In this document: positions 1-32,391 of the stretch, piece by piece | How positions within the stretch are numbered: position 1 is the first letter of the stretch | Layout: each line of letters starts with the position of its first letter | Virus record (IMG/VR): IMGVR_UViG_3300045988_068295 | Strand: one strand, 5' to 3' | Source of the DNA: a virus | DNA: 32,391 bases | Notes under the pieces: generated by a model | Seen by the model: only the letters and a program-made list of their open reading frames with translations | What the model was told of the DNA's origin: nothing | Database searches by the model: none | Translations under genes and position numbers: made by a program

Positions 1-312
1 ATGATCGACGAAAGCCTTGTGGTGCTTTTGCAGTGCATCCGGGAGCACTTTGGCAAGCCCATCACGATCACCAGCGGCTACCGCACCGGAACCCACAACA
101 CCGCCGTCGGCGGCTCCAGATCCAGCCAGCACCTGCTGGGCAAGGCAGCGGACATCCAGGTGGCGGGCGTGTCCGTCGAGGACGTGGCCGCCTACGCCGA
201 GAGCCTGATGCCCGCCTGGGGTGGCGTTGGCCGCTACCCCGTCAAGGCGGGCCGCGCCAAGGGCTGGGTGCATGTGGACACCCGGCCCAACAAAAGCAGA
301 TGGACGCAGTGA
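1..312 (+). CDS. Endolysin, zinc peptidase M15 (Peptidase_M15_3 / YcbK-like). This is the C-terminal 103 aa; the N-terminal 34 codons lie at 32213..32314 across the circular junction.
   Basis: Motifs SGYRTGTHNTAVGG, SSQHLLGKAADI (H-x6-D metal ligands) and GWVHVDTR. The reading frame is continuous with the ATG at 32213. A holin gene follows directly. Confidence 0.85.
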   Translation: MIDESLVVLLQCIREHFGKPITITSGYRTGTHNTAVGGSRSSQHLLGKAADIQVAGVSVEDVAAYAESLMPAWGGVGRYPVKAGRAKGWVHVDTRPNKSRWTQ

Positions 313-323
313 GGAGGTGGCGC

Positions 324-749
324 ATGAAAGATTATTTTTGCATGGCGATCGGCGCGATCGGCGGCGTGATCGCCGGTCTTTTTGGCGGCTGGGATGCCGC
401 CATGCAAACGCTGGTGATCTTTATGGCCGTCGACTACATCACCGGTCTAATTGTGGCCGGTGTGTTTCACGCATCGCCCAAAACCAAGACCGGGACACTG
501 GAAAGCCGGGCAGGCTGGAAGGGCCTGATCCGCAAGGGCGAAACGCTCCTGATCGTGCTGGTGGCCTGCAGGCTGGATGCCGTGATGGGTTCCACCTTTG
601 TGCGGGATGCCGTTGTGATCGGCTTTATCTGTAACGAGACCATTTCCATCATTGAAAACGCGGGCTTGATGGGACTGCCGATCCCGGCAGCGCTCACCAA
701 GGCTGTGGACATTTTAAAGCAGCGCTCGGAAACCGAGCAGAAAGGATAA
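324..749 (+). CDS. Holin (Phage_holin_4_1 / toxin-secretion-phage-lysis holin family)
   Basis: ATG at 324 is preceded by GAGGAGG (312..318). There are several TM segments and the family-typical DYITG...SRAGWKG...NETISIIENAGLMGLPIP pattern. The ORF-track start at 33 overlaps the endolysin and lacks an RBS. Confidence 0.8.
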   Translation: MKDYFCMAIGAIGGVIAGLFGGWDAAMQTLVIFMAVDYITGLIVAGVFHASPKTKTGTLESRAGWKGLIRKGETLLIVLVACRLDAVMGSTFVRDAVVIGFICNETISIIENAGLMGLPIPAALTKAVDILKQRSETEQKG

Positions 750-755
750 GCTCTT

Positions 756-1136
756 ATGAATGAATTTCTGAAAGTCGCTCTTACTGCCTGCATCCCCGCA
801 ATGACAGTTATCTTTGGCTGGGGCCTGAACAAGGGTGTCAGCATTGCAAACGGCTACATCAACAACAAGTTTGCGCAGACCTGTCTCCAGAATGCCGCCA
901 ACGCGGTGTTCAATGCTGTCCAGTATGTCAACCAGACCTACGTTGATGCCCTGAAGGAACAGGACAAGTTCGACGAGGACGCGCAGCGCATTGCCTACAA
1001 CCGCGCACTGACCGCAGCGAAGAAAGCCCTGACGCAGGAGACCATCACGTTCATCAAGGAGACCTTTGGCGACCTCGACAGCTACCTGAAGCCGATGATC
1101 GAAGCGCAGGTGCGCAGCCAGAAGACCTATATGTGA
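756..1136 (+). CDS. Holin_LLH-like protein / second lysis-cassette membrane protein
   Basis: N-terminal TM (ALTACIPAMTVIFGWGL) followed by a helical region (QTYVDALKEQDKFDEDAQRIAY...LKPMIEAQV) resembling LL-H type holins. Its position is directly after the holin. Confidence 0.55.
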   Translation: MNEFLKVALTACIPAMTVIFGWGLNKGVSIANGYINNKFAQTCLQNAANAVFNAVQYVNQTYVDALKEQDKFDEDAQRIAYNRALTAAKKALTQETITFIKETFGDLDSYLKPMIEAQVRSQKTYM

Positions 1137-1171
1137 TGTTTCTGTAGTGCCAACAAAATCATAGTATCGCA

Positions 1172-1215
1172 ACAGCCCCGGGGAGCCTGACGGTTCCACG
1201 GGGCTGTTTTTGTTT
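1172..1215 (+). terminator. Rho-independent terminator ending the lysis cassette
   Basis: ACAGCCCCG (1172..1180) pairs with CGGGGCTGT (1199..1207) and is followed by TTTTTGTTT. Confidence 0.7.
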
Positions 1216-1309
1216 GCAGCGCATTCCGACATGTTGCGACACATTTTAACACTTTCGGCACATTTCCGGCATTTTCCAGCTAGAGTTGTACCGGAAGGAA
1301 GTGTAAAAA

Positions 1310-1660
1310 ATGACCACTTATGATATGACCGATTTTGCCGCACAGGTGGACGGGGTGCTGCGCCCGCTGGGCATCACCCGCAATATGCGGGCTTACCACA
1401 CTCTGAGCGAGGCGCTCCGGCTGATCTGCGAGCAGGAGGACCGGCTGGAAGCCGTCCAGAAAGAAATTTACGAGCCCATTGCAGACCGCCATTGCTGCGA
1501 CTGGACCGCCATTCAGAGCATGATCCGCCGTGCCGCGCAGACCGCATGGGCCACCAACCCTGCGCAGGTGCAGCATCTGGCTGGCTACCCGCTGACCGGC
1601 TGCCCCAGTGCCGTGCAGTTTCTGGAGCTGTTGTATAATGGGATGGTGAGAGGGGTGTAA
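1310..1660 (+). CDS. Stand-alone Spo0A C-terminal (Spo0A_C) DNA-binding domain protein with no receiver domain
   Basis: Aligns by eye along its length to the B. subtilis Spo0A effector domain: LGITRNMRAYHTLSEAL vs IGVPAHIKGYLYLREAI, VQKEIYEPIADRH vs ITKVLYPDIAKKF, IQSMIRRAAQTAW vs VERAIRHAIEVAW, and GYPLTGCPSAVQFLELL vs GYTV..KPTNSEFIAMV. RBS GGAAGGAAG. Confidence 0.8.
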   Translation: MTTYDMTDFAAQVDGVLRPLGITRNMRAYHTLSEALRLICEQEDRLEAVQKEIYEPIADRHCCDWTAIQSMIRRAAQTAWATNPAQVQHLAGYPLTGCPSAVQFLELLYNGMVRGV

Positions 1661-1674
1661 ATCGCCTTAGCCCA

Positions 1675-1697
1675 AAAAGTGGGTTGCGAAGTGGGTT
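1675..1697 (+). repeat. Putative integrase arm-type site, copy 1 (AAAAGTGGGTTGCGAAGTGGGTT; contains 2x AAGTGGGTT)
   Basis: 23-nt direct repeat, 22/23 identical to 1882..1904, flanking the tRNA-derived core. Confidence 0.6.
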
Positions 1698-1710
1698 TGC
1701 ACAAAAGAAA

Positions 1711-1747
1711 AGCACCCGGAAACTTACGTTTCTAGGTGCTATTTCTT
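1711..1747 (+). terminator. Possible terminator after the Spo0A_C-like gene
   Basis: Interrupted hairpin AGCACC-cg-GAAAC-ttac-GTTTC-ta-GGTGCT followed by ATTTCTT. The U-tract is weak. Confidence 0.35.
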
Positions 1748-1770
1748 GGTGGGCGCGGGTGGATTCGAAC
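1747..1770 (-). other. attP core: 3' fragment of a tRNA gene (T-loop, T-stem 3' strand, acceptor 3' strand, CCA)
   Basis: The minus strand reads GTTCGAATCCACCCGCGCCCACCA. Sequence 5' of the T-loop cannot form a T-stem, so only the 3' part of a tRNA is present. It lies 130 bp beyond the integrase stop in the same orientation. Confidence 0.7.
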
Positions 1771-1881
1771 AACTATTCTTTCGGCCTGTCCATTCCTGCC
1801 GTGTCAGAAAATGCAGCATTCAAGCCACTTTTCGGGCACGGCACGGAATGCGCGGTGCACCGCCGGAATGGCTCGAACATT

Positions 1882-1904
1882 AAAAGTGGGTTGCAAAGTG
1901 GGTT
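1882..1904 (+). repeat. Putative integrase arm-type site, copy 2 (AAAAGTGGGTTGCAAAGTGGGTT)
   Basis: Direct repeat of 1675..1697 with one mismatch. It overlaps the integrase stop codon. Confidence 0.6.
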
Positions 1905-3060
1905 ATTTTTCGGGACCCGGCGCGTACTCGGACAGCACGCCGGAGACGGCCTGCGCGGTGGCGTCATCGCGGCCGGTGACGGCGTGGGAGTACCAGCCGT
2001 AGGTGTCCATGCTCTTGCTGTGGCCCACGATGCGGCGCAGCTGTGCGGGCGGCACGGCGTCCTCGATCATGCTCACAAAGGTGTGCCGCAGCTCGTACAG
2101 GCTGACCGGCGGGTCGATGCCGTTGCAGCGCTGGTAGACCCTCCAGTAATTGTACAGGCTCTGCTGGTTGGACAGCAGAAAAAGCGGGTCATCGTCCCGC
2201 AAGGGGCGCTCCTCTTCCTGCGTGCGCTGCTGCAGCTGGGCGCGGATTTCGGCCACAGCTAGAGGGTGCAGCACCACCGTTCGGATGGCGTTCTCGTTCT
2301 TGCCGCTGGTCTCTTCGTTCTGGCGGTTGATGGCCCGCCCGATGTGCACCCGGTCACCATCCAGATCGCCCACACGCAGGCCCAGCAGCTCACCAGGGCG
2401 CAAGCCGGTCATGACCGCGATGCGGTAGGCGTGCACGTTCTCGTCCTGCTCCACTTTTCCACGCACCACACGGGTGTCTGTGGATAAGAGCACCCGCAGA
2501 CTGTCCGGCTGCAGGATTTTCCGGCCCTTCAGGCGGGCACCCTTCGGCACGGTCAGATCCTCGTCCTCCGGGCGCAGGGAGGTGTATTTATGCTGGCGCG
2601 CCCACTTGACAAAGGCCACCTCCACGCCACGGATGCCCTGCAGCGTTTTGCGGGACAGGTTGCCCCGGCTCTTGCGCTTGCTGTCCGGATTCAGACAGCC
2701 TTCCTTATAGGAGCGGTTCAGCACGTCCTGCAGCATGCCGGTGGTCAGGTCGCCGATGCGCCGCGCACCGATCACCGGCAGGATGTAGTTGCGCCCGAAC
2801 TTCTCCACCTGCTCGATGTTGCTGGTGCCACCCGTGGCTTTGACCGAAATCATGTACTCGGCCCACACGTCTGCGCAGCGTTTTGTGGTGCTGCTGATGC
2901 CCTCGTCCAGCCAGACGTCCGCCTTGCGGTTCGCTTCGCGCTGGCCTGTCCGGCCGGGCTTAGTGCTGGTAAAGGTGCGGCGCACGCCGTCCTTCTGCAC
3001 CTTGATCTGCCAGCGGTTCTGGTTCGGCAGCCACACCGCCGTATTGGTTCGCAATCCCAT
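1903..3060 (-). CDS. int: Tyrosine recombinase / phage integrase with an AP2-like arm-binding N-terminus
   Basis: Catalytic-region motifs LRPGELLGLRVGDLD, ELRHTFVS and VGHSKSMDTYGWYSH. The N-terminus WQIKVQKDGVRRTFTSTKPGRTGQREA is typical of arm-binding domains. The start at 3060 has GGAGGTG 8 nt upstream; the ORF-track start at 3153 lacks an RBS. Confidence 0.9.
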   Translation of the reverse strand: MGLRTNTAVWLPNQNRWQIKVQKDGVRRTFTSTKPGRTGQREANRKADVWLDEGISSTTKRCADVWAEYMISVKATGGTSNIEQVEKFGRNYILPVIGARRIGDLTTGMLQDVLNRSYKEGCLNPDSKRKSRGNLSRKTLQGIRGVEVAFVKWARQHKYTSLRPEDEDLTVPKGARLKGRKILQPDSLRVLLSTDTRVVRGKVEQDENVHAYRIAVMTGLRPGELLGLRVGDLDGDRVHIGRAINRQNEETSGKNENAIRTVVLHPLAVAEIRAQLQQRTQEEERPLRDDDPLFLLSNQQSLYNYWRVYQRCNGIDPPVSLYELRHTFVSMIEDAVPPAQLRRIVGHSKSMDTYGWYSHAVTGRDDATAQAVSGVLSEYAPGPEK

Positions 3061-3085
3061 AAAAATACACCTCCATGGGTACACT

Positions 3086-3114
3086 TTGACAAGCCTGCCC
3101 GGAGGTGGTACAAT
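3086..3114 (+). promoter_or_regulatory. Near-consensus sigma-A type promoter: TTGACA, 17-nt spacer, TGgTACAAT
   Basis: TTGACA at 3086..3091, a 17-nt spacer and an extended -10 TGgTACAAT ending at 3114. It points away from int and into the int/cargo intergenic region. Confidence 0.6.
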
Positions 3115-3120
3115 ACAACT

Positions 3121-3194
3121 GCTGGATTGGATTGTTCCTCGTGAGCAAGCCATTCTTTCGCGCCCTGCCGGTTGCCGCCGGTGGGGCGTTTTTT
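3121..3194 (+). ncRNA. Candidate small RNA of about 74 nt, cis-antisense to the cargo-int intergenic region
   Basis: Bounded by the consensus promoter (3086..3114) and a strong intrinsic terminator (3161..3194). No RBS or credible ORF is present. It contains a UUCCUC anti-SD-like stretch. Confidence 0.45.
3161..3194 (+). terminator. Rho-independent terminator, plus-strand polarity
   Basis: An 11-bp stem (CGCCCTGCCGG / CCGGTGGGGCG, two G-U pairs), loop TTGCCG, then TTTTTT. On the minus strand no U-tract follows the hairpin. Confidence 0.75.
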
Positions 3195-3203
3195 ATTCAA
3201 AAA

Positions 3204-4217
3204 TCAGGATGCCTTCCGGCCTTCGCTCTTGCCGGAAGAGATATAGTGCTCATAGTATTTCTGGTTATCTTCGCCAAAAGCGGCAACCAAATCAGGATTA
3301 TTTGCTTTGTAGGCGGCAAGGCTAAATGTACTGCTGCCCTGACGGCCCTCCTTCATGCCGCTGTTTACGAAATGCTCCAGATACTTCCACTGGTTATCTC
3401 CAAACAGGGCAGCCAGATCGGCGTTGTGCTCTTTGTAATACTGATAATCGTAAACAGGGGCGTATTTGCTGGTCAGCACATAGTAAGGCTGATTCGTCGG
3501 GTCGCTTCTGAAGTGACCCGAATACAGGGCTTTTTGATTGACGGTCTCTTTGCTTCCGTCCATATAGATGATATCCGCCTTAGTCACGGCAATCTCGTCG
3601 ATCGTGCTGTTGTACCAAAGGCAATCCCATTCCACTGCTGCATTGTAAATTGCATTCTGAAGTTCGTCATCTGTCAGATAAGTAGTGGAATCCAACTGAC
3701 CCTGCATCTTGGAATGATCAATCACGGACAGAACAGAGGACGGAGTGTAAGAATCAGCATAATAGGCATTACCGTCCTTGTCCAAAAAGATTCTATGCCC
3801 GTTGCGCTCTTCTGCGCCAAAGTAATAGTTCGTTGCAAGCTGCTGCTGTGCCTGGAACGGTCCAAAATCCCCCATGGACGCGGGAGAAGTCACCGTGTTT
3901 GCGACCGTTCGGTCAAATCTTGTCGGAGCAATCGGCCCTACTACCTGGGCCGTCACCGTCGAACGGCCGCTGATCGTGCAGGAAGTTCTATCACCGACCG
4001 CATTAAGCGGAACCAGCGTGAACGTAACGTATTTAATGGTTTTGTTTGAATTATTCCGGAAGCAGACCGTGGGGCTGACGCCGTCAAAATCGTCGACCGT
4101 AAAATAGACGTCGGTGAGCTCGACCGCAGGCTTTGCCGCAAAGGCACCGCATGCGAGAATCGTCATCAGCGCCAGTGTAAAAACAACGCCTAAAAGCCTT
4201 TTTACTGACTTTTTCAT
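3204..4217 (-). CDS. Secreted protein of unknown function (prophage cargo / moron) with two C-terminal repeats of about 38 aa
   Basis: RBS GGAGAG. Sec signal peptide MKKSVKRLLGVVFTLALMTILACGAFA followed by AKP. Tandem C-terminal repeats YKEHNADLAALFGDNQWKYLEHFVNSGMKEGR and YKANNPDLVAAFGEDNQKYYEHYISSGKSEGR. GC is visibly lower than the flanking DNA. Confidence 0.75.
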   Translation of the reverse strand: MKKSVKRLLGVVFTLALMTILACGAFAAKPAVELTDVYFTVDDFDGVSPTVCFRNNSNKTIKYVTFTLVPLNAVGDRTSCTISGRSTVTAQVVGPIAPTRFDRTVANTVTSPASMGDFGPFQAQQQLATNYYFGAEERNGHRIFLDKDGNAYYADSYTPSSVLSVIDHSKMQGQLDSTTYLTDDELQNAIYNAAVEWDCLWYNSTIDEIAVTKADIIYMDGSKETVNQKALYSGHFRSDPTNQPYYVLTSKYAPVYDYQYYKEHNADLAALFGDNQWKYLEHFVNSGMKEGRQGSSTFSLAAYKANNPDLVAAFGEDNQKYYEHYISSGKSEGRKAS

Positions 4218-4293
4218 GATTCTCTCCTTTTTTCTGTTGAAAAAATCCCAGTTTTCTGCGATTTTTTCGTTTGTTTTCAGTTGTCAAAAATTG

Positions 4294-4322
4294 TTGCAAT
4301 TAACGCCGAATGGTTGTATAAT
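4294..4322 (+). promoter_or_regulatory. Near-consensus promoter: TTGCAA, 17-nt spacer, TATAAT
   Basis: TTGCAA at 4294..4299, a 17-nt spacer and TATAAT at 4317..4322. Confidence 0.65.
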
Positions 4323-4358
4323 GTTCTTGGACATAAAACCGAATCGGAGGATTGCCAC

Positions 4359-4463
4359 ATGACACGACAAGATTACATCAACGCCATTCTGAAACTGCTG
4401 GAAAAAGCCGATTTCCGCCAGCTGCGGCTTGTGTGGGTGTACGCAAGCCACCTGATCGGATGA
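4359..4463 (+). CDS. 34-aa micro-ORF (MTRQDYINAILKLLEKADFRQLRLVWVYASHLIG), function unknown
   Basis: GGAGG (4346..4350) lies 8 nt upstream of the ATG at 4359. The ORF sits between a consensus promoter and an intrinsic terminator. The longer track ORF (4281) starts upstream of the promoter -10. Confidence 0.4.
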   Translation: MTRQDYINAILKLLEKADFRQLRLVWVYASHLIG

Positions 4464-4482
4464 GCCGCCAGCCACCATGCGA

Positions 4483-4514
4483 GGGAAGCCTTTACAGGCT
4501 TTCCTCTTTTTTTT
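4483..4514 (+). terminator. Rho-independent terminator, plus polarity, overlapping the 3' end of the repressor CDS
   Basis: GGAAGCC / GGCTT(T)CC stem with one bulge, followed by TCTTTTTTTT. Confidence 0.6.
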
Positions 4515-4869
4515 GCGTCAGTTTTTCGGCCATGCGTTCCAGCAGTTCCCAGTCTGCCGGGCTCAAGCCTGCCAGCATTTCGATAAAACGCTTTTTAAAG
4601 GTGTCGCTGTCATCTTTGGTCAGGTCAGCCAGAAAGGCCGCCACCTGCTCGGACTGGGTGTCCTGTACAAACATTTCACCCTCGCCTTCGCGCAGCCATG
4701 CTTCCCGGACGCCGAACTCCCGGCAGATGTCGCTGATCGTGCGGTCGCTGGGGGCTTTTGCACCAGAGCAAAGTTCTGATGCAAAAGGTTGTGAGATGTG
4801 CAAGCGGTTTGCAAAATCCACCTTTTTCAAACCGAGTTCTTCAATGATTTTCTTTATACGCTCGTTCAT
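4492..4869 (-). CDS. CI-like repressor, XRE-family HTH
   Basis: N-terminal HTH (RIKKIIEELGLKKVDFANRLHISQPFASELCSG). The ATG at 4869 has GGAGGTG 6 nt upstream; the track start at 4878 is a GTG inside the RBS. It is divergent from the early operon. Confidence 0.85.
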   Translation of the reverse strand: MNERIKKIIEELGLKKVDFANRLHISQPFASELCSGAKAPSDRTISDICREFGVREAWLREGEGEMFVQDTQSEQVAAFLADLTKDDSDTFKKRFIEMLAGLSPADWELLERMAEKLTQKKEESL

Positions 4870-4893
4870 TTGTATCACCTCCTTCTATTTCGG

Positions 4894-4922
4894 ATTGTAC
4901 CACGTGGGTGCTACTGTGTCAA
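4894..4922 (-). promoter_or_regulatory. Leftward (repressor) promoter: TTGACA, 17-nt spacer, TGgTACAAT
   Basis: The reverse complement of 4894..4922 reads TTGACAcagtagcacccacgtggTACAAT. Confidence 0.65.
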
Positions 4923-4932
4923 GAATAAAATT

Positions 4933-4943
4933 TAGCTCAGCTA
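4933..4943. promoter_or_regulatory. Operator O1: TAGCTCAGCTA (core of the perfect 13-bp palindrome TTAGCTCAGCTAA)
   Basis: Perfect inverted repeat, 10 bp upstream of the repressor promoter -35. Confidence 0.6.
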
Positions 4944-4955
4944 ATAATTTTACGC

Positions 4956-4984
4956 TTGACATTGTAGCAGAGCTATGCTATAGT
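4956..4984 (+). promoter_or_regulatory. Rightward early promoter (PR-like): TTGACA, 17-nt spacer, TATAGT
   Basis: TTGACA at 4956..4961, a 17-nt spacer and TATAGT at 4979..4984. Confidence 0.7.
4965..4975. promoter_or_regulatory. Operator O2: TAGCAGAGCTA, inside the PR spacer
   Basis: Matches the TAGCNNAGCTA pattern. Its centre is 32 bp from O1 and 21 bp from O3. Confidence 0.55.
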
Positions 4985-4985
4985 A

Positions 4986-4996
4986 TAGCCAAGCTA
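4986..4996. promoter_or_regulatory. Operator O3: TAGCCAAGCTA, at the PR start-site region
   Basis: Matches TAGCNNAGCTA. A further half-site, TTAGCC, lies at 5005..5010. Confidence 0.55.
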
Positions 4997-5041
4997 AGGC
5001 GAACTTAGCCGGCCAAGTCAACCAGAAGGGAGGTGAAGAAG

Positions 5042-5227
5042 ATGAATCACTATCCCCGCACACCGGAAGAACAGGAACGGCTTAACAAGAAGATGCAGGA
5101 ACTCGACCAGAAGATGCTGGAGGAAACCGAGCGATACTATGCACGCCTTGACCTGAAATACGGTATTGCTTTCGCTCTGTCCATCATTGCGCTGCTCATC
5201 AACGTCATCAACCTTTTAAGGCTGTAG
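5042..5227 (+). CDS. 61-aa tail-anchored membrane protein, first gene downstream of PR
   Basis: GGGAGG lies 8 nt upstream of the ATG at 5042. The N-terminus is a charged helix and the C-terminus is a TM segment (YGIAFALSIIALLINVINLL). No HTH is present. Confidence 0.5.
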   Translation: MNHYPRTPEEQERLNKKMQELDQKMLEETERYYARLDLKYGIAFALSIIALLINVINLLRL

Positions 5228-5543
5228 CAATGGCAACAAGCAGGCTCAAAACCGACAAACTAAGAGCAATGTTGGCACGCCTTTCAGTTTTTGTGAAATG
5301 CTTTTGTTCTTCCAGAGCAACACGGCCACCAGCATTGATCTGGTAGGTATACTCCGGTTCTTCGTACTCATACCGGAACGCATCTTCATCTTCATATCGA
5401 AAGACCATATTCTTATCCGTCAGCCATTGCATGGTTTCAAAGTTGACGGTCATGCCGTACTTTCCCATCTGATAAATAGAAAGAGCCTCATCCTGATGCT
5501 CGTTCAGGAATTCCAGAACCTTCAGCGTTTTTACGTCCAGCAT
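5208..5543 (-). CDS. 111-aa tail-anchored membrane protein on the lysogeny strand, embedded in the early region
   Basis: The ATG at 5543 has AAAGGAG 8 nt upstream. C-terminal TM (IALSLSVLSLLVAIATAL). Possible promoter TTGTGG, 17-nt spacer, TATACT (the -10 is the reverse complement of 5566..5571). GC is lower than the surroundings. Confidence 0.55.
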   Translation of the reverse strand: MLDVKTLKVLEFLNEHQDEALSIYQMGKYGMTVNFETMQWLTDKNMVFRYEDEDAFRYEYEEPEYTYQINAGGRVALEEQKHFTKTERRANIALSLSVLSLLVAIATALKG

Positions 5544-7256: not shown

Positions 7257-8893
7257 TCATCAGCCAGAACAGCAACGATGTTTACTACGCCTATACCCGT
7301 GGGCGCTTCTGGCGCTGGGACGGATCCGCACAGACCTGGAAGGAAAGCCATCTGCTGGCCCAGAAGTTCGACAAAGCCAAGGCCGTTGAAAAGTGGCTGA
7401 CCCCGGAAGCGTTTCTGACCAGCGACGAGTTCATCCCGATGGACGACTACGCGCTTCCGGATCAGATGCTCACCGCCCTCAGGGATGCCAAGCCCTGCAA
7501 AAATGCCCCCATCGACCCAGTGGAAGAGGATTCTTCCTCGGGTGTTCCTGCTCCCTGCATCTGCTCTACCTGCACCTGTGGCGGGTGCAAAGAAGAATGC
7601 TTCGGAAACTGCCACAGTTGCGGCCATCCCGTGCAGGAGTGCAACAGCTACCAGACCGAAGGCGAAAAGCATTTAACTCCCGCTCACTCTGCGGATGTTG
7701 ACAAACCGGAAGTGCCCGGAACCCAGACGACACAGGACAAGCCCCTGACCACCGTGCCGGATGAGATGCGCCCGGCGTTCGATTACTCCGGGCTGGACGA
7801 GCAGACCGTGGAGGACCTGCACTTTGCAGAAAAGGAGTACCAGCACGGCAAGAAACTGGCCGAGCGCGGCCTGATTCACATGGGCGACGCCATCGCCATT
7901 GCGCATGAAGCGCTGTGCGGAGTTGTCGCAAATTGCGACAACTCTGGTGATGGAGCTTGTCGCAATTTGCGACGAGCTCACAACAACCAGCACAGTGATG
8001 ACACCTTCCGGGCGTGGTGCGTGTCCATCGGCATCACCAAAGATACCGCTTACCGGCTGTTACAGGTGGCCACCCTGATGGACCACAGCAACCCGCGCCA
8101 GCAGAAGGTACTGAAAGAGTTGTCTCCATCTCTGCTGTATGCCGTGGCAAAGCCCAGCGCCCCGGCAGAGCTGGTGGCACAGGTCAAGAGCGGTGATATC
8201 ACAACACACAAGCAGTATCAGGAAGCCCTTGCCCAGATCAAGGCCGAAAAGGACCGTGCCAATGCTGCCGAGGCTGAGCGGGACAAGCTGCTGGGTGCCC
8301 AGAATCGGGCTGCCTGGGCGGAAAGCCACATCCAAGATGTCGAAGCCCAGCGGGATGCCGCCCTTGCGGACGTGCAGGGTCTGACCGAGCAGAACGCCAA
8401 GCTCCAGCAGAGTTACCACGATGCGGACGAAAGCCGCATTGCCGCCAATCTCCAGCGCCAGAAGGCCGAAGCCGAACGCGACAAGGCCGAAGCCCGTGCC
8501 AAGGATGCTGAGAATCAGCTGGCCGGGGCCCGGCAGGTGGCAGAGGCCGCAAAGCTGCGGGGCGACAAGCTCAAGGCCGAGAACGACGCGCTGAAAAGTC
8601 AGCCCATCACCGCCGTGGTGGACAAAGAGGAGACCCGGCGGCAGGCAAAAGAAATGGCCGACGCCATGAATGCCGAGCTACAGGAAAAACTGGACGCCGT
8701 CACCGGGGACGCCGAGCAGGACGTCCGGAACGCTTACGACAGCGTCCTGCTGGCCAGCCGGGCCATGCTGAACACCTGGCAGATGGTAAAGCCGCAGTTC
8801 CGCAAACTGCCGCAGGAGCAGCGGGAAGCCGTCGCCAATCAGCTCATCCGTACACTGGGACAAATTCAAGGGGAGGTATCACAATGTCTGTAA
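7253..8893 (+). CDS. DUF3102-like protein with a Cys-rich segment and a long C-terminal coiled coil
   Basis: Cys cluster CICSTCTCGGCKEECFGNCHSCGHPVQEC. DUF3102-like core (AEKEYQHGKKLAERGLIHMGDAIAIAHEAL ... FRAWCVSIGITKDTAYRLLQVATL). About 200 aa of heptad-rich A/E/K/Q sequence. Confidence 0.55.
   Translation: MIISQNSNDVYYAYTRGRFWRWDGSAQTWKESHLLAQKFDKAKAVEKWLTPEAFLTSDEFIPMDDYALPDQMLTALRDAKPCKNAPIDPVEEDSSSGVPAPCICSTCTCGGCKEECFGNCHSCGHPVQECNSYQTEGEKHLTPAHSADVDKPEVPGTQTTQDKPLTTVPDEMRPAFDYSGLDEQTVEDLHFAEKEYQHGKKLAERGLIHMGDAIAIAHEALCGVVANCDNSGDGACRNLRRAHNNQHSDDTFRAWCVSIGITKDTAYRLLQVATLMDHSNPRQQKVLKELSPSLLYAVAKPSAPAELVAQVKSGDITTHKQYQEALAQIKAEKDRANAAEAERDKLLGAQNRAAWAESHIQDVEAQRDAALADVQGLTEQNAKLQQSYHDADESRIAANLQRQKAEAERDKAEARAKDAENQLAGARQVAEAAKLRGDKLKAENDALKSQPITAVVDKEETRRQAKEMADAMNAELQEKLDAVTGDAEQDVRNAYDSVLLASRAMLNTWQMVKPQFRKLPQEQREAVANQLIRTLGQIQGEVSQCL
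7923..7973. repeat. Two 15-bp palindromic sites (GTCGCAAATTGCGAC and GTCGCAATTTGCGAC), 34 bp centre to centre, inside the DUF3102-like CDS
   Basis: The sites are 7925..7939 and 7959..7973. Each has GTCGCA/TGCGAC arms and the two are reverse complements of each other. Confidence 0.8.
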
Positions 8894-18833: not shown

Positions 18834-20168
18834 ATGGCCGACAAGGACATTGCCCCGGAGCTGCTGGAGCGCATCCGGGCCGACTTCCGGGCGCTGCTGG
18901 GCGACGCAAAGCCCGCCGCCGACACCTACGCTGCCGCTGCGGATTACGCCGAGCTTGTGGGCAGTGCCCTGGCCGAGGCCTTCCGCCGCAACCTGACCGC
19001 CGACGCCCTGCCGGACGGCAGGCTGTACTGGAACATTGCCGACCGGGTGGTGCGCCCCCTGCTGGAAGAGGAGCACCTGCTGGTGGCGGACGCTTCCGCT
19101 GCCGTGCAGCAGGCACTGAACCAGCAGGCAAATCTCGGCATTGCCCCGCAGCGGGCCGTGCTGCCCACCGACGCTGTGGACGACCTGCTGAACAAGGTGT
19201 CCACGGCGGAGCAGTTTGCGGATGTGGCGTGGGCACTGGACGAGCCGGTGCGTACCTTCTCCCGCATGGTGGTGGACGACACCCTGAAACGCAACGTGGA
19301 TTTTCAGGGCAAGGCCGGGCTGCGGCCCCGTGTCATCCGCACCGCCGAGAGCCACTGCTGCAAATGGTGCAGTGCGCTGGCCGGCACTTACGATTACCCC
19401 CGTGTGCCCAAAGACGTTTACCGCCGCCACGAGCGCTGCCGCTGCCGGGTGGAATATGACCCCGGCGAGGGCAGGCGGCAGAACGTGTGGAACAAGACGT
19501 GGACGGAGGATGAGGACGCCCGGCAGGCACGCATTCAAAAGATTCAAAACCCATCGACAAACCGAGACGATTCTGCTAAGATAGAAGCACGAAAACAGAT
19601 TGGGCTGCCGCCGGTCGATTCACCTGAGATCAAGGCCATCAAGGCCGCAATGTCCGAGCAGGTGCTTAGTCTGCCGGAAACCGCACAGGAGGCTCTCCGG
19701 CAGTATACCGGCTTTACGGCGACCCGTGTGAACTTTGCCATCCGGAACGGAAAAATCACACCGCAGATCCAGGAGACCATTTCCGCATTGGATAACGCGC
19801 TGGCTTCCGGCGTGATGCCGCAGAGCGTCACCCTGTACCGGAACACAGCGCTTTCTTTTCTAGGGTTCGGGCTTCCCAAAAATCCGACCCTGCAGGATCT
19901 GCAAGACCTTGTGGATCTCACACCGGAATTTCCGATATTTATATCAACCAGTTTTCAGGATCTGCATCTTCCGGGCCGTGACACGCTGATTCAGCTGCAT
20001 GTTCCGGCAGGATATAAGGGCTGCCAGTTCCTTCAGCCTGTAGCGCTTCCCAAATTCAAAAGTCAGGACGAAGTCCTGTTTGCCCGTGGGATGCAGTATC
20101 GTGTGCTGGATGTTGGTAGAAAAGACGACCGATATTTTTTAGAGATCGAGGTGCTCCAAAATGTCTAA
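18834..20168 (+). CDS. Minor head protein (MuF / SPP1 gp7 domain) fused to a C-terminal ADP-ribosyltransferase toxin domain (C3/VIP2-like, R-STS-QxE)
   Basis: MuF signature CCKWCSALAGTYDYPRVPKDVYRRHERCRCRVEYDP. ADPRT motifs LYR (R336, 19839..19841), FISTSF (19944..19952) and SQDEVLFARG (Q411-x-E413, 20064..20072). Confidence 0.85.
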   Translation: MADKDIAPELLERIRADFRALLGDAKPAADTYAAAADYAELVGSALAEAFRRNLTADALPDGRLYWNIADRVVRPLLEEEHLLVADASAAVQQALNQQANLGIAPQRAVLPTDAVDDLLNKVSTAEQFADVAWALDEPVRTFSRMVVDDTLKRNVDFQGKAGLRPRVIRTAESHCCKWCSALAGTYDYPRVPKDVYRRHERCRCRVEYDPGEGRRQNVWNKTWTEDEDARQARIQKIQNPSTNRDDSAKIEARKQIGLPPVDSPEIKAIKAAMSEQVLSLPETAQEALRQYTGFTATRVNFAIRNGKITPQIQETISALDNALASGVMPQSVTLYRNTALSFLGFGLPKNPTLQDLQDLVDLTPEFPIFISTSFQDLHLPGRDTLIQLHVPAGYKGCQFLQPVALPKFKSQDEVLFARGMQYRVLDVGRKDDRYFLEIEVLQNV

Positions 20169-20494: not shown

Positions 20495-20571
20495 GCCGTT
20501 TTAGCTCATGTTGGCAGGGCCGTGGTCTCCAAAACCACAGGTCACTGGTTCGATTCCAGTAAACGGTGCCA
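20495..20571 (+). tRNA. trnW: tRNA-Trp (anticodon CCA)
   Basis: The full cloverleaf was folded by hand. Acceptor GCCGTTT/AAACGGT (G1-U72), D-stem GCTC/GGGC, anticodon stem GTGGT/ACCAC with loop CT-CCA-AA, T-arm ACTGG-TTCGATT-CCAGT, discriminator G, encoded CCA. Confidence 0.9.
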
Positions 20572-20604
20572 TCATTTTCATGCAAAGGAGGAACCCAGCC
20601 CACC

Positions 20605-22020
20605 ATGCCGCGGACGCGAAAACAGACAGCCCCGGCAAGGCTGGGGCGTCAGACGCCCACCGCTGCCGTGGTGCTGCCCTACACCAAAACCTTCGGCCAG
20701 GACGCCATCGACCTGTACAACTCCACCGGGCGCATCGCCCAGCAGTGGCAGGAGCTGCTGCTGTATGACATCCTTGCCCGCAACGAGGAGGATCTGTGGG
20801 TGCATACCAAGTTCGGCTATGCCGTGCCCCGCCGCAACGGCAAGAACGAGATCGCCGCCATCCGGGAGCTGTACGGCCTGCAGCAGGGCGAGAGCATCCT
20901 GCACACCGCCCACCGCACCACCACCTCCCGGGCCGCCTGGGAGCGGTTGTGCCACCTGCTGGACAAGGCCAAGATCCCCTATAAATCCATTCAGGCCGTG
21001 GGCCGGGAGCACATCCAGCTGGAAGAGGGCGAGGGCCGCATCGAGTTCCGCACCCGCTCCTCCAAGGGCGGCCTGGGCGAGGGCTTTGACCTGCTGGTCA
21101 TCGACGAGGCCCAGGAGTACACCGACGATCAGGCCAGTGCCCTGAAGTATGTGGTCACTGACAGCGAGAACCCGCAGACCCTGTTCTGCGGCACCCCGCC
21201 CACGCCGGTGTCCTCCGGCACGGTGTTCCTCAAAATGCGCAACGCCGCCCTGCGGGGCGACACGCAGAACACCGGCTGGGCCGAGTGGAGCGTGGAGCAG
21301 CAGACCGACCCCCACGACGTGGAGGCCTGGTATCAGACGAACCCCAGCCTCGGCACCATCTTCACCGAGCGCAGTGTGGCGGATGAGATCGGCGATGACC
21401 CCATCGACTTCAACATCCAGCGTCTGGGGCTGTGGCTTCGGTACAACCTCAAATCGGCCATCAGCCGGGCAGAGTGGGACGAACTGAAAACCGACACCCT
21501 GCCCAAGCTCACCGGCAAGCTGTATGCCGGCATCAAGTTCAGCACCGACGGCACCAGCTGTGCGCTGGCCGTTGCGTGCCGCACCAAAGACAACGCTATC
21601 TTCGTGGAAGCCATCGGCTGCCATCCTACCCGGGACGGCAGCGGGTGGCTTCTTGATTTTCTATCCAAAGCCGACCTAGCCGCCGTGGCGGTGGACGGGG
21701 CCAGCGGGCAGCAGCTTCTGGCCGACGCCATGAAGGCCGCCCACCTCAGGTCCCCCGTGCTGCCCACGGTCAAGCAGGTCATCACCGCCAACGCCGCCTT
21801 CGAGCAGGCCCTTTTTGCGCAAGCCCTGTGCCATGCCGGCCAGCCCGGCCTTGCGCAGGCTGCTTCCAACTGCGAAAAGCGGGCCATCGGCTCCAACGGC
21901 GGCTTCGGTTACCGCTCTCTGACCGAGGGCGGCCACATCGAGCTGCTGGACAGCGTGATCCTGGCCCACTGGCAGTGCGCCGAGGGCAAGGGCAAGCGCC
22001 GGCAGCGCATCCGCTATTAA
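20605..22020 (+). CDS. terL: Terminase large subunit
   Basis: Walker A-like AVPRRNGKN, Walker B DLLVIDEAQEY, and a C-terminal nuclease-size domain. The start at 20605 was chosen because the track start at 20566 overlaps the tRNA. Confidence 0.85.
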   Translation: MPRTRKQTAPARLGRQTPTAAVVLPYTKTFGQDAIDLYNSTGRIAQQWQELLLYDILARNEEDLWVHTKFGYAVPRRNGKNEIAAIRELYGLQQGESILHTAHRTTTSRAAWERLCHLLDKAKIPYKSIQAVGREHIQLEEGEGRIEFRTRSSKGGLGEGFDLLVIDEAQEYTDDQASALKYVVTDSENPQTLFCGTPPTPVSSGTVFLKMRNAALRGDTQNTGWAEWSVEQQTDPHDVEAWYQTNPSLGTIFTERSVADEIGDDPIDFNIQRLGLWLRYNLKSAISRAEWDELKTDTLPKLTGKLYAGIKFSTDGTSCALAVACRTKDNAIFVEAIGCHPTRDGSGWLLDFLSKADLAAVAVDGASGQQLLADAMKAAHLRSPVLPTVKQVITANAAFEQALFAQALCHAGQPGLAQAASNCEKRAIGSNGGFGYRSLTEGGHIELLDSVILAHWQCAEGKGKRRQRIRY

Positions 22021-32212: not shown

Positions 32213-32391
32213 ATGGCAATCAAACAGTATAGCCTGAAAGCGGACAGAAAAAAGAAACTGTCCCCGAATTTTACGGTCTACGAGTTCCGCTGCCGCGACG
32301 GCAGCGACGTCGTGATGATCGACGAAAGCCTTGTGGTGCTTTTGCAGTGCATCCGGGAGCACTTTGGCAAGCCCATCACGATCACCAGCGG
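32213..32391 (+). CDS. Endolysin (peptidase M15), 5' part; continues at position 78 of the window because 32315..32391 duplicates 1..77
   Basis: The ATG at 32213 encodes MAIKQYSLKADRKKKLSPNFTVYEFRCRDGSDVVMIDESL..., in frame with ORF 1..312. FxxxEFxC is the usual N-terminal motif of Peptidase_M15_3. Confidence 0.85.
   Translation, partial: MAIKQYSLKADRKKKLSPNFTVYEFRCRDGSDVVMIDESLVVLLQCIREHFGKPITITS
32315..32391 (+). repeat. 77-nt exact terminal duplication of 1..77 (circular-contig overlap)
   Basis: Base-by-base identity was checked. Confidence 0.95.

Follow-up and report, generated by a model that had tools for sequence, protein, structure and literature searches.

Classical prophage morons, streptococcal and staphylococcal toxin genes for example, lie between the lysis genes and attP. 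Gut phages also carry spo0A homologues that lack the receiver domain, and an effect of these on the host has been proposed (Schwartz et al. 2023, bioRxiv 10.1101/2023.01.19.524802); in the portion of that preprint considered here, such proteins are proposed to act without signals from the host phosphorelay (10.1101/2023.01.19.524802). The isolated DNA-binding domain of Spo0A binds its targets without phosphorylation (PMC3485338), and the corresponding Pfam domain, PF08769, is over-represented in the chromosomal mobile elements of gut Firmicutes (Jiang et al. 2019, PMC6907783). [quoted passage not shown] Here we describe a receiver-less gene of this kind in a Faecalibacterium phage, the cassette in which it travels and the repeat array that precedes it.

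Results

The window, by which we mean the whole stretch of 32,391 nucleotides that was analysed (IMG/VR virus record IMGVR_UViG_3300045988_068295), repeats its bases 1-77 at 32315-32391 and was therefore taken to be a circularly assembled genome of ~32.3 kb. It is a bona fide temperate Faecalibacterium siphophage genome of the Lugh-like type: its content includes capsid, portal, a minor-head/ADP-ribosyltransferase fusion, helicase, primase and one tRNA-Trp, and its integrase-to-early region is 85% identical at the DNA level to that of Faecalibacterium phage FP_Lugh. The lysis cassette starts with the gene for an M15 peptidase (endolysin), which begins at about 32214 and reads across the circular junction, its 3' part occupying 1-312 (+ strand; Pfam Peptidase_M15_3, E 1.4e-23). 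A holin follows at 324-749 (+; Pfam Phage_holin_4_1, E 9e-37), and the last gene of the cassette, at 756-1136 (+), is a second holin-like gene (PHROG 13712 holin, E 2.7e-22). On the opposite strand, 1903-3153 encodes a tyrosine integrase (Pfam Phage_integrase, E 4e-12) whose true start probably lies downstream of the first ATG of the ORF.

The attP region extends over about 1670-1905. Its 29-nt core (1742-1770, - strand), defined by aligning the integrated loci L004 and L006 with the window, matches the 3' end of host tRNA-Tyr(GTA) at every position; tRNA-Tyr(GTA) is found at the prophage junction in L004, L006 and L008. On either side of the core lies a direct repeat, AAAAGTGGGTTGCRAAGTGGGTT (direct repeat D2), one copy to its left at 1675-1697 (+) with tandem AAGTGGGTT half-sites and one to its right at 1882-1904 (+), abutting the integrase stop codon, and an inverted copy is present at 1821-1837. 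These repeats are probably the arm-type sites of the integrase.

The gene under study, at 1310-1660 (+ strand, ATG start), encodes a stand-alone protein of 116 aa that was examined by Pfam, BLASTP, AlphaFold2 and dN/dS analysis. Pfam matched residues 15-110 to Spo0A_C (PF08769) at E 3.5e-18, covering positions 3-102 of the 104 of the profile, and the score of 65.9 bits compares with a gathering score of 25. No domain besides Spo0A_C, and no REC match, was returned by Pfam for this protein; as it is 116 aa long and aligns solely to Spo0A 152-260, it has no room for a receiver domain. Its residues 8-112 share 20% identity with residues 152-260 of B. subtilis Spo0A (BLASTP), and among solved structures significant sequence similarity is confined to 1FC3 and 1LQ1, both Spo0A effector domains (E ~5e-6 to 2e-5). 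The AlphaFold2 model, computed from an alignment of 17 family members, contains six helices with a mean pLDDT of 87.5. When this model was compared with the PDB by Foldseek, the real matches were again Spo0A-C chains alone (1fc3 and 1lq1; TM 0.73-0.81, rmsd 2.3-3.0 A), and the next-best match had a TM of 0.43. Pairwise dN/dS among homologues was 0.05-0.31, which indicates purifying selection and hence a real gene. The 116-aa protein is thus confirmed to have a complete Spo0A effector fold without a receiver or phosphoacceptor domain. A preliminary description of the locus had claimed both the alignment along the Spo0A DNA-binding domain and the absence of a receiver, and had named a profile search against PF08769 as the check; the match, the fold and the confinement of the alignment to Spo0A 152-260 uphold it on each of these. 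PADLOC gave no defence-system match for the protein or its neighbours.

Although the fold is that of Spo0A, the sequence is not that of a truncated spo0A. The NCBIfam equivalog model for Spo0A, TIGR02875, scored the protein at 39.6 bits against an equivalog cut-off of 200. Together with the 20% identity, this leaves an Spo0A orthologue or a recent truncation of a host spo0A without support, and that candidate was ruled out. Divergence extends to the recognition helix, which is TAIQSMIRRAAQTAW in the phage protein and SRVERAIRHAIEVAW in Spo0A. In the BLASTP alignment, the Spo0A stretch R211-V-E213-R214-A-I-R217-H218-A...W224 corresponds to A67-I-Q69-S70-M-I-R73-R74-A...W80, so that E213 is replaced by Q69 and R214 by S70; opposite Spo0A R217 and H218, the phage helix keeps R73 and R74. 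The Q-S pair is invariant in the 17-sequence family alignment, in which LRP-GIT, E-ED-L-A and A67-x-Q69-S70-x-x-R73-R74-A75...W80 are among the invariant residues; most other stand-alone paralogues keep the E-R pair, as "VERNIRT". We take E213 and R214 to be base-contacting positions of the Spo0A recognition helix, and with both replaced the specificity of the phage protein may differ from the boxes found upstream of its gene. The sigma-A activation patch of Spo0A presumably comprises G227, S233, F236 and V240, and the aligned residues differ in the phage protein (F236, for instance, becomes A91). With this patch not conserved, the constitutive activity suggested at the outset for a stand-alone effector domain is not implied.

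Near-Spo0A copies do exist in phages. In GenBank, Spo0A-C homologues 31-73% identical to the B. subtilis protein are found in 14 records of uncultured faecal phages, 12 of the 14 at 50% or more. These fit a picture of truncated spo0A genes better than the Faecalibacterium-phage clade does; the clade described here is a separate, old one, diverged from the near-Spo0A copies.

Relatives of the phage protein were numerous. A word-indexed search recovered 318 clusters (90% identity), nearly all of 112-118 aa with Spo0A_C as the sole domain, and an exhaustive profile search of 1.84 billion representatives gave 2,095 clusters (50% identity) at E <= 1e-3. Among the best 150 of these 2,095 clusters, nearly all were stand-alone proteins of 100-135 aa and some had three to five tandem Spo0A_C domains. 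No ordinary REC-plus-Spo0A_C protein was recognised among the inspected entries of this best 150; the sole inspected entry with a receiver-like N-terminus, P0246, continues into two Spo0A_C domains. Judged by these profile matches, the phage protein is a member of a large and diverse set of stand-alone Spo0A_C proteins. Database protein names are often assigned automatically, and such names were not taken as a sign of canonical Spo0A. The protein also matched PHROG 24603 (E 1.4e-10), whose function is annotated as unknown. Faecalibacterium MAGs made up six of the ten species-representative genomes carrying the gene, and two of these genomes had two copies each. Single-protein searches for the loci of the stand-alone clades P0143 and P0193 gave no match.

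We then considered the surroundings of the gene. The late/lysis operon is closed by an intrinsic terminator at 1171-1218 (+), a hairpin with 17-nt arms followed by TTTTTGTTTG. By terminator scan, inverted-repeat and folding analysis, the hairpin at 1171-1208 with its T-run has a free energy of -31.9 kcal/mol (z -4.5), and it is kept together with the cassette in other phages. A second terminator hairpin lies 3' of the gene at 1711-1747 (+; AGCACC...GGTGCT, then ATTTCTT); the fold of 1655-1745 reaches -37 kcal/mol (z -5.7) and the 1711-1747 hairpin is conserved in L004, L006 and L009. The gene is clearly bracketed by hairpins predicted to be strong terminators. An Rfam scan of 900-2100 returned nothing but sub-threshold chance matches on the terminator hairpin, and a riboswitch or sRNA explanation was dropped on this account.

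All integrated relatives examined have it as the final gene of the prophage, behind the lysis genes and adjoining the host junction. This terminal position of the gene holds in the myovirus-like L004, which has baseplate J and a sheath initiator, as in the siphovirus-like L006 and L010-L013, and it holds with M15 or GH25 lysins, with different integrases and with tRNA-Tyr or tmRNA attB sites. The cassette adjoins a serine recombinase in the non-integrated contigs L007 and L009 and a tyrosine integrase in the window, and many IMG/VR prophage contigs or predictions stop 3 nt past the stop codon of the gene. No counterpart occurs between holin and integrase in FP_Lugh, where the cassette is absent. 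The location between lysis genes and attP, the absence from FP_Lugh and the recurrence of the same place in unrelated backbones support a moron-type position. The placement originally proposed for the gene, between the lysis terminator and attP with an upstream region of its own and at the prophage end, is therefore borne out by the two terminators, the attP region and the outermost position in all integrated relatives examined. On this comparative evidence the locus is a putative accessory cassette, mobile and insulated, whose terminal location is strongly conserved.

The gene lies immediately beside attP and the integrase, and many recombination directionality factors and phage regulators are, like its product, small HTH proteins. 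The product could also be a regulator or accessory factor internal to the phage, serving attachment-site events or the lysis-lysogeny decision with no effect on the host. We judge such a role improbable. Neither the recombinase family beside the gene (tyrosine integrases or a serine recombinase) nor the attB site is constant, the related phage FP_Lugh is viable without the gene, the terminators insulate it from the late genes and from attP, and the 32-kb genome has no second copy of the repeat array described below. The narrower idea of a dedicated excisionase (recombination directionality factor) was rejected, since the gene occurs with different recombinase families, tyrosine integrases and serine recombinase, and with both tRNA-Tyr and tmRNA attB sites.

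The region upstream of the gene has a layout that alignments show to be conserved in diverse relatives: terminator hairpin, 10-bp repeats, a -10-like hexamer, ribosome-binding site and start codon. The repeats, at 1213-1272 (+), are six head-to-tail 10-bp units with the family consensus ATTnCGACAY, the five strongest lying at 1223-1272; in the window they read TTTGCAGCGC, ATTCCGACAT, GTTGCGACAC, ATTTTAACAC, CTTTCGGCAC and TTTCCGGCAT. Iterative refinement gave the unit A-T-T-n-C-G-A-C-(A/G)-(C/T), in which G6 is conserved at 82% and C8 at 94%. Relative to the -10 element, the units are phased at -68, -58, -48, -38, -28 and -18. Read on the opposite strand, the consensus ATTTCGACA becomes TGTCGAAAT; it thus includes the 0A box TGTCGAA in reverse orientation. 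Repeats resembling 0A boxes directly upstream of the gene make a link to 0A-type DNA sites plausible.

The periodicity was assessed against shuffled sequence. In the 66 nt before the -10 element, autocorrelation at shift 10 was 0.54 versus 0.28 +/- 0.05 after shuffling, a value reached by none of 5000 shuffles; across 11 diverse family loci the mean was 0.505 versus 0.267 +/- 0.014, and a further peak appeared at shift 20. Scanning with a PWM trained on 57 sites, 6 of them from the window's own locus so that the genome scan is partly self-trained, gave 31.5 for the three-unit array at 1223, where Markov-shuffled genomes had a null maximum of 15.3 +/- 1.7 and a largest value of 22. The same scan found no second array above the null in the 32-kb genome, and a phage-internal regulon is therefore not visible. 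When IMG/VR was scanned for a pattern of three phased units, at least 114 new loci came up. Among the matches listed, 26 were the cassette, the array preceding the gene by 71-74 nt, about nine more were copies of it truncated at a contig end, and most of the others were unrelated tandem repeats; gene and array thus travel together in 26 additional viral contigs among the matches listed. Exact TTCGACA is absent from the window's own array. An enrichment of perfect 0A boxes was tried as an explanation and rejected, the genome containing 4 against 2.65 expected by chance and none of them upstream of the gene. The putative upstream signal is a degenerate phased array, not perfect 0A boxes.

Since every unit is T-rich in one half (ATTT) and successive units are exactly one helical turn apart, the 10-bp periodicity might instead reflect phased T-tracts in intrinsically bent promoter DNA, with a protein role unrelated to 0A boxes. 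The conservation pattern makes this very unlikely: the best-conserved positions, G6 and C8, belong to the CGAC core and not to the T-tract, the consensus coincides with the 0A box, and comparable boxes stand upstream of unrelated stand-alone Spo0A_C genes.

Within the family, we noted that an EPKAIQS clade goes with CGACG boxes and a DWTAIQS clade with CGACA. This covariation of helix and box was not used as evidence, since it is confounded by phylogeny and the helix is nearly invariant.

Downstream of the array, alignments of upstream regions identified a -10-like hexamer, TAGAGT, at 1281-1286 (+), which is TAAAGT in most relatives. The ribosome-binding site GGAAGGAAG lies at 1293-1301 (+), 8 nt before the ATG, and is conserved as GAAAGGA in relatives. 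No good -35 hexamer is found at 17 bp from TAGAGT, the repeat units filling its place, and a consensus scan of 700-3400 detected no sigma-70 promoter upstream of the gene. Units at the -35 place fit a putative activator-dependent promoter or a promoter-occluding operator.

Another question is which protein reads the array. Host Spo0A-P could do so, making the gene a Spo0A-controlled output of the prophage, and the phage protein, with its Q and S, would then target other DNA or engage in protein contacts, for instance by joining Spo0A in mixed head-to-tail assemblies or by contacting RNA polymerase. The canonical 0A box within the array consensus is in keeping with this, as are a phage helix without the E-R pair of Spo0A and most paralogues and a poor -35 region overlapped by the boxes, which fits an activator-dependent promoter. 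However, array and gene are always found together, whatever the phage backbone or host, as would be the case for an autoregulatory operator, and the phage helix retains R73 and R74, while Q and S are still able to read bases. We regard host Spo0A-P as an unlikely reader, but as the main rival to an array-bound autoregulator; the data do not separate the two.

Boxes of the 0A type were also sought at other phage genes. Phage contigs with stand-alone Spo0A_C genes of the VERNIRT-helix type were retrieved with a back-translated pattern, and TGNCGAA in either orientation occurred within 127 nt in five of ten distinct upstream regions, four times as exact TGTCGAA. The expectation is ~0.06 per region and the binomial tail ~1e-4, uniform composition being assumed. 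L218 has four boxes at 10-bp spacing, and gut phage contigs of ~105-112 kb have a three-box array, TTTCGACGTTTTGCGACACGTTTCGACA, right after a terminator. Behind this array, the L104 operon encodes a 266-aa protein, a 164-aa Spo0A_C homologue (helix TTASKVERCMRH) and a small third protein; in four further contigs of ~105-112 kb, a Spo0A_C-like ORF lies 1.6-3.1 kb downstream on the same strand. On reading its sequence, the small protein of the L104 operon is ribbon-helix-helix-like. The pairing of 0A-type boxes with stand-alone Spo0A_C genes appears to be a general association.

Discussion

The reading we favour is that the protein is an autoregulator bound to the array of its own insulated cassette, which also acts in trans on host boxes without phosphorylation; we put its probability at about 0.45. 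According to this model, integration into tRNA-Tyr would leave the gene outermost in the prophage and insulated from the late operon. The protein would then bind side by side on one helix face of its own array and so control its own synthesis. Similar boxes on the host chromosome could be occupied in trans, again without phosphorylation, in competition with or as a substitute for Spo0A-type stationary-phase regulation. The array geometry matches the tandem binding of Spo0A in the 1LQ1 complex, in which two effector domains sit head to tail on tandem 0A boxes at 10-bp spacing. That the phage protein, not host Spo0A, is the array binder, that it has host targets and that it is expressed in the lysogen are points we infer.

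A two-part latch would combine this autoregulator with the host regulator: Spo0A-P would switch the gene on through the array, and the product would then hold both the array and 0A-type host promoters independently of the phosphorelay, locking the lysogen state. We consider such a latch improbable. If true, it would mean that a lysogen is held in a stationary-phase or persistence state, or kept from entering one, to the benefit of the prophage in a non-sporulating host, and that stand-alone Spo0A_C proteins with 0A boxes are widespread mobile-element regulators tapping the Spo0A pathway in gut Clostridia.

The preliminary description had listed sporulation among the programmes to be rewired. 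The hosts are mainly Faecalibacterium, regarded as non-spore-forming (PMC13020158), and rewiring of sporulation proper is therefore doubtful. Should the product of the cassette act on 0A-type promoters, prophages of a keystone commensal considered asporogenous would be adjusting its stationary-phase or persistence programmes.

The hypothesis of a receiver-less phage spo0A was already published for gut phages in 2023, and since such homologues and their presumed role are in the literature, the present locus opens no new category. The homologues of Schwartz et al. 2023, as far as the portion of the preprint considered here goes, share the effector-only architecture, the habitat and the proposed phosphorelay-independent control of host sporulation regulation; that portion makes no mention that we found of the cassette position or the repeat array (10.1101/2023.01.19.524802). 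In the literature searched, we found no experimental test of a receiver-less Spo0A-like phage protein. As far as the literature examined extends, we did not find the distinction between a diverged clade and near-Spo0A copies, the terminal position, the altered helix or the phased array of 0A-like boxes. What the present analysis adds is a handle: a defined family with a diverged helix, a fixed prophage-end position and a 60-bp phased array of 0A-like boxes.

Compared with the Spo0A effector domain of Bacillus and Clostridium (1FC3, 1LQ1, PF08769), the phage protein has the same six-helix fold over its full length and conserves W224, R217 and the LxGY motif; it differs from the Spo0A of these genera in having neither receiver nor linker, in its 20% identity and in its altered recognition helix. 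In C. difficile, a 0A box has been reported upstream of spo0A itself (PMC3485338), and the phage gene, with its 0A-type boxes, offers a parallel. The closest cultured carrier is Faecalibacterium phage Aster, whose orf27 (XAI97616.1) is 69% identical and adjoins the integrase; it is annotated as hypothetical in a 172-aa frame, the upstream extension of which runs over the repeat array. The over-representation reported by Jiang et al. 2019 (PMC6907783) is statistical and at the level of the domain, without anatomy, family definition or mechanism. With the classical morons, finally, the cassette shares its position, its own terminators and its presence or absence among related phages; whereas those genes carry a toxin or a surface protein, the cargo here is a transcription factor, whose expression in the lysogen is putative.

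Signs of recombination in and beside the cassette

Two contigs carrying the same cassette as the window, L007 and L009, continue past it into a serine recombinase gene. Despite this, comparison of the stretch 3' of the Spo0A_C gene with window positions 1660-1752 showed that the tyrosine-integrase arm repeat and the terminator are still present, and that in both contigs the tRNA-Tyr core agrees with that of the window for 11 nt from its start, after which the sequences diverge. The protein encoded by their cassette, P0083, is identical to the window protein over its C-terminal 20 residues, with ~64% identity over the remainder. The shared downstream elements and the uneven protein identity both point to recombination inside the cassette and adjoining it.

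The annotation of the cassette gene in phage Aster (L001) also deserves comment. The GenBank product of Aster orf27 (4818-5336) is 172 aa long; homology begins only at about residue 58, and the N-terminal extension overlies the 10-bp repeat array, so the start codon has probably been annotated too far upstream. The pattern recurs in several database entries of 173 aa (P0067, P0068 and P0106).

Host genes at the tRNA-Tyr junction

In three loci with a prophage integrated at tRNA-Tyr, the first host protein gene past the prophage end is of the phosphorelay type: L004 has a gene for an Hpt-domain protein (7740-8198), and in L006 (8179-11058) and L008 (3285-5069) the gene encodes a hybrid histidine kinase that includes a receiver domain. 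The Spo0A-like prophage gene thereby adjoins phosphotransfer genes in these loci, a proximity that may be coincidental.

Genome ends and other genes of the window

Positions 1-77 of the window are an identical copy of 32315-32391, which shows it to be a complete, circularly assembled phage genome of ~32.3 kb; an M15 peptidase gene crosses the circular junction. Next to the portal gene lies a gene (18834-20168, plus strand) encoding a 444-aa fusion, whose N-terminal part corresponds to a minor head protein (PHROG 2494) and whose C-terminal part is an ADP-ribosyltransferase exoenzyme domain (PF03496, E 4e-17). The product may be an ADP-ribosyltransferase delivered with the virion. A tRNA-Trp(CCA) gene (20495-20571, plus strand) directly precedes, and nominally overlaps, an ORF (20566-22020) with a weak match to a terminase-large-subunit nuclease.

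A minus-strand gene (3204-4217) that lies between the integrase gene and the early region encodes a 337-aa protein with a C-terminal repeat and, as judged by eye from the translation, an apparent N-terminal signal peptide; it had no match in Pfam, PHROG or PADLOC. G+C content around it is clearly reduced (0.48-0.51 across 3001-5000, versus ~0.63), and this is possibly an additional accessory gene (moron).

Spo0A_C domains and 0A boxes elsewhere

Six database proteins of 340-850 aa (P0135, P0138, P0140, P0221, P0248 and P0262) each contain 3-5 stretches matching Spo0A_C. In P0135 and P0138, the two whose sequences were inspected, the domains stand in tandem without a receiver domain, an architecture of which we know no earlier description, and several of their repeats retain recognition helices resembling that of Spo0A.

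A three-unit 0A-box array, TTTCGACGTTTTGCGACACGTTTCGACA, directly follows a terminator in gut phage contigs including L104 (3370-5440, minus strand) and the similar L112, L132, L148, L151, L153, L161, L202, L206, L209 and L212; those with listed lengths measure ~105-112 kb. In L104, the one contig inspected in detail, the array lies upstream of an operon whose last gene encodes a 164-aa Spo0A_C homologue with the canonical TTASKVERCMRH helix. Exact TGTCGAA boxes were also found 57-107 nt upstream of stand-alone phage Spo0A_C genes in L218, L229, L276 and L277. The gene in L218 is preceded by four boxes at 10-bp spacing, which are in forward orientation, whereas those of the window's family are in the opposite orientation.
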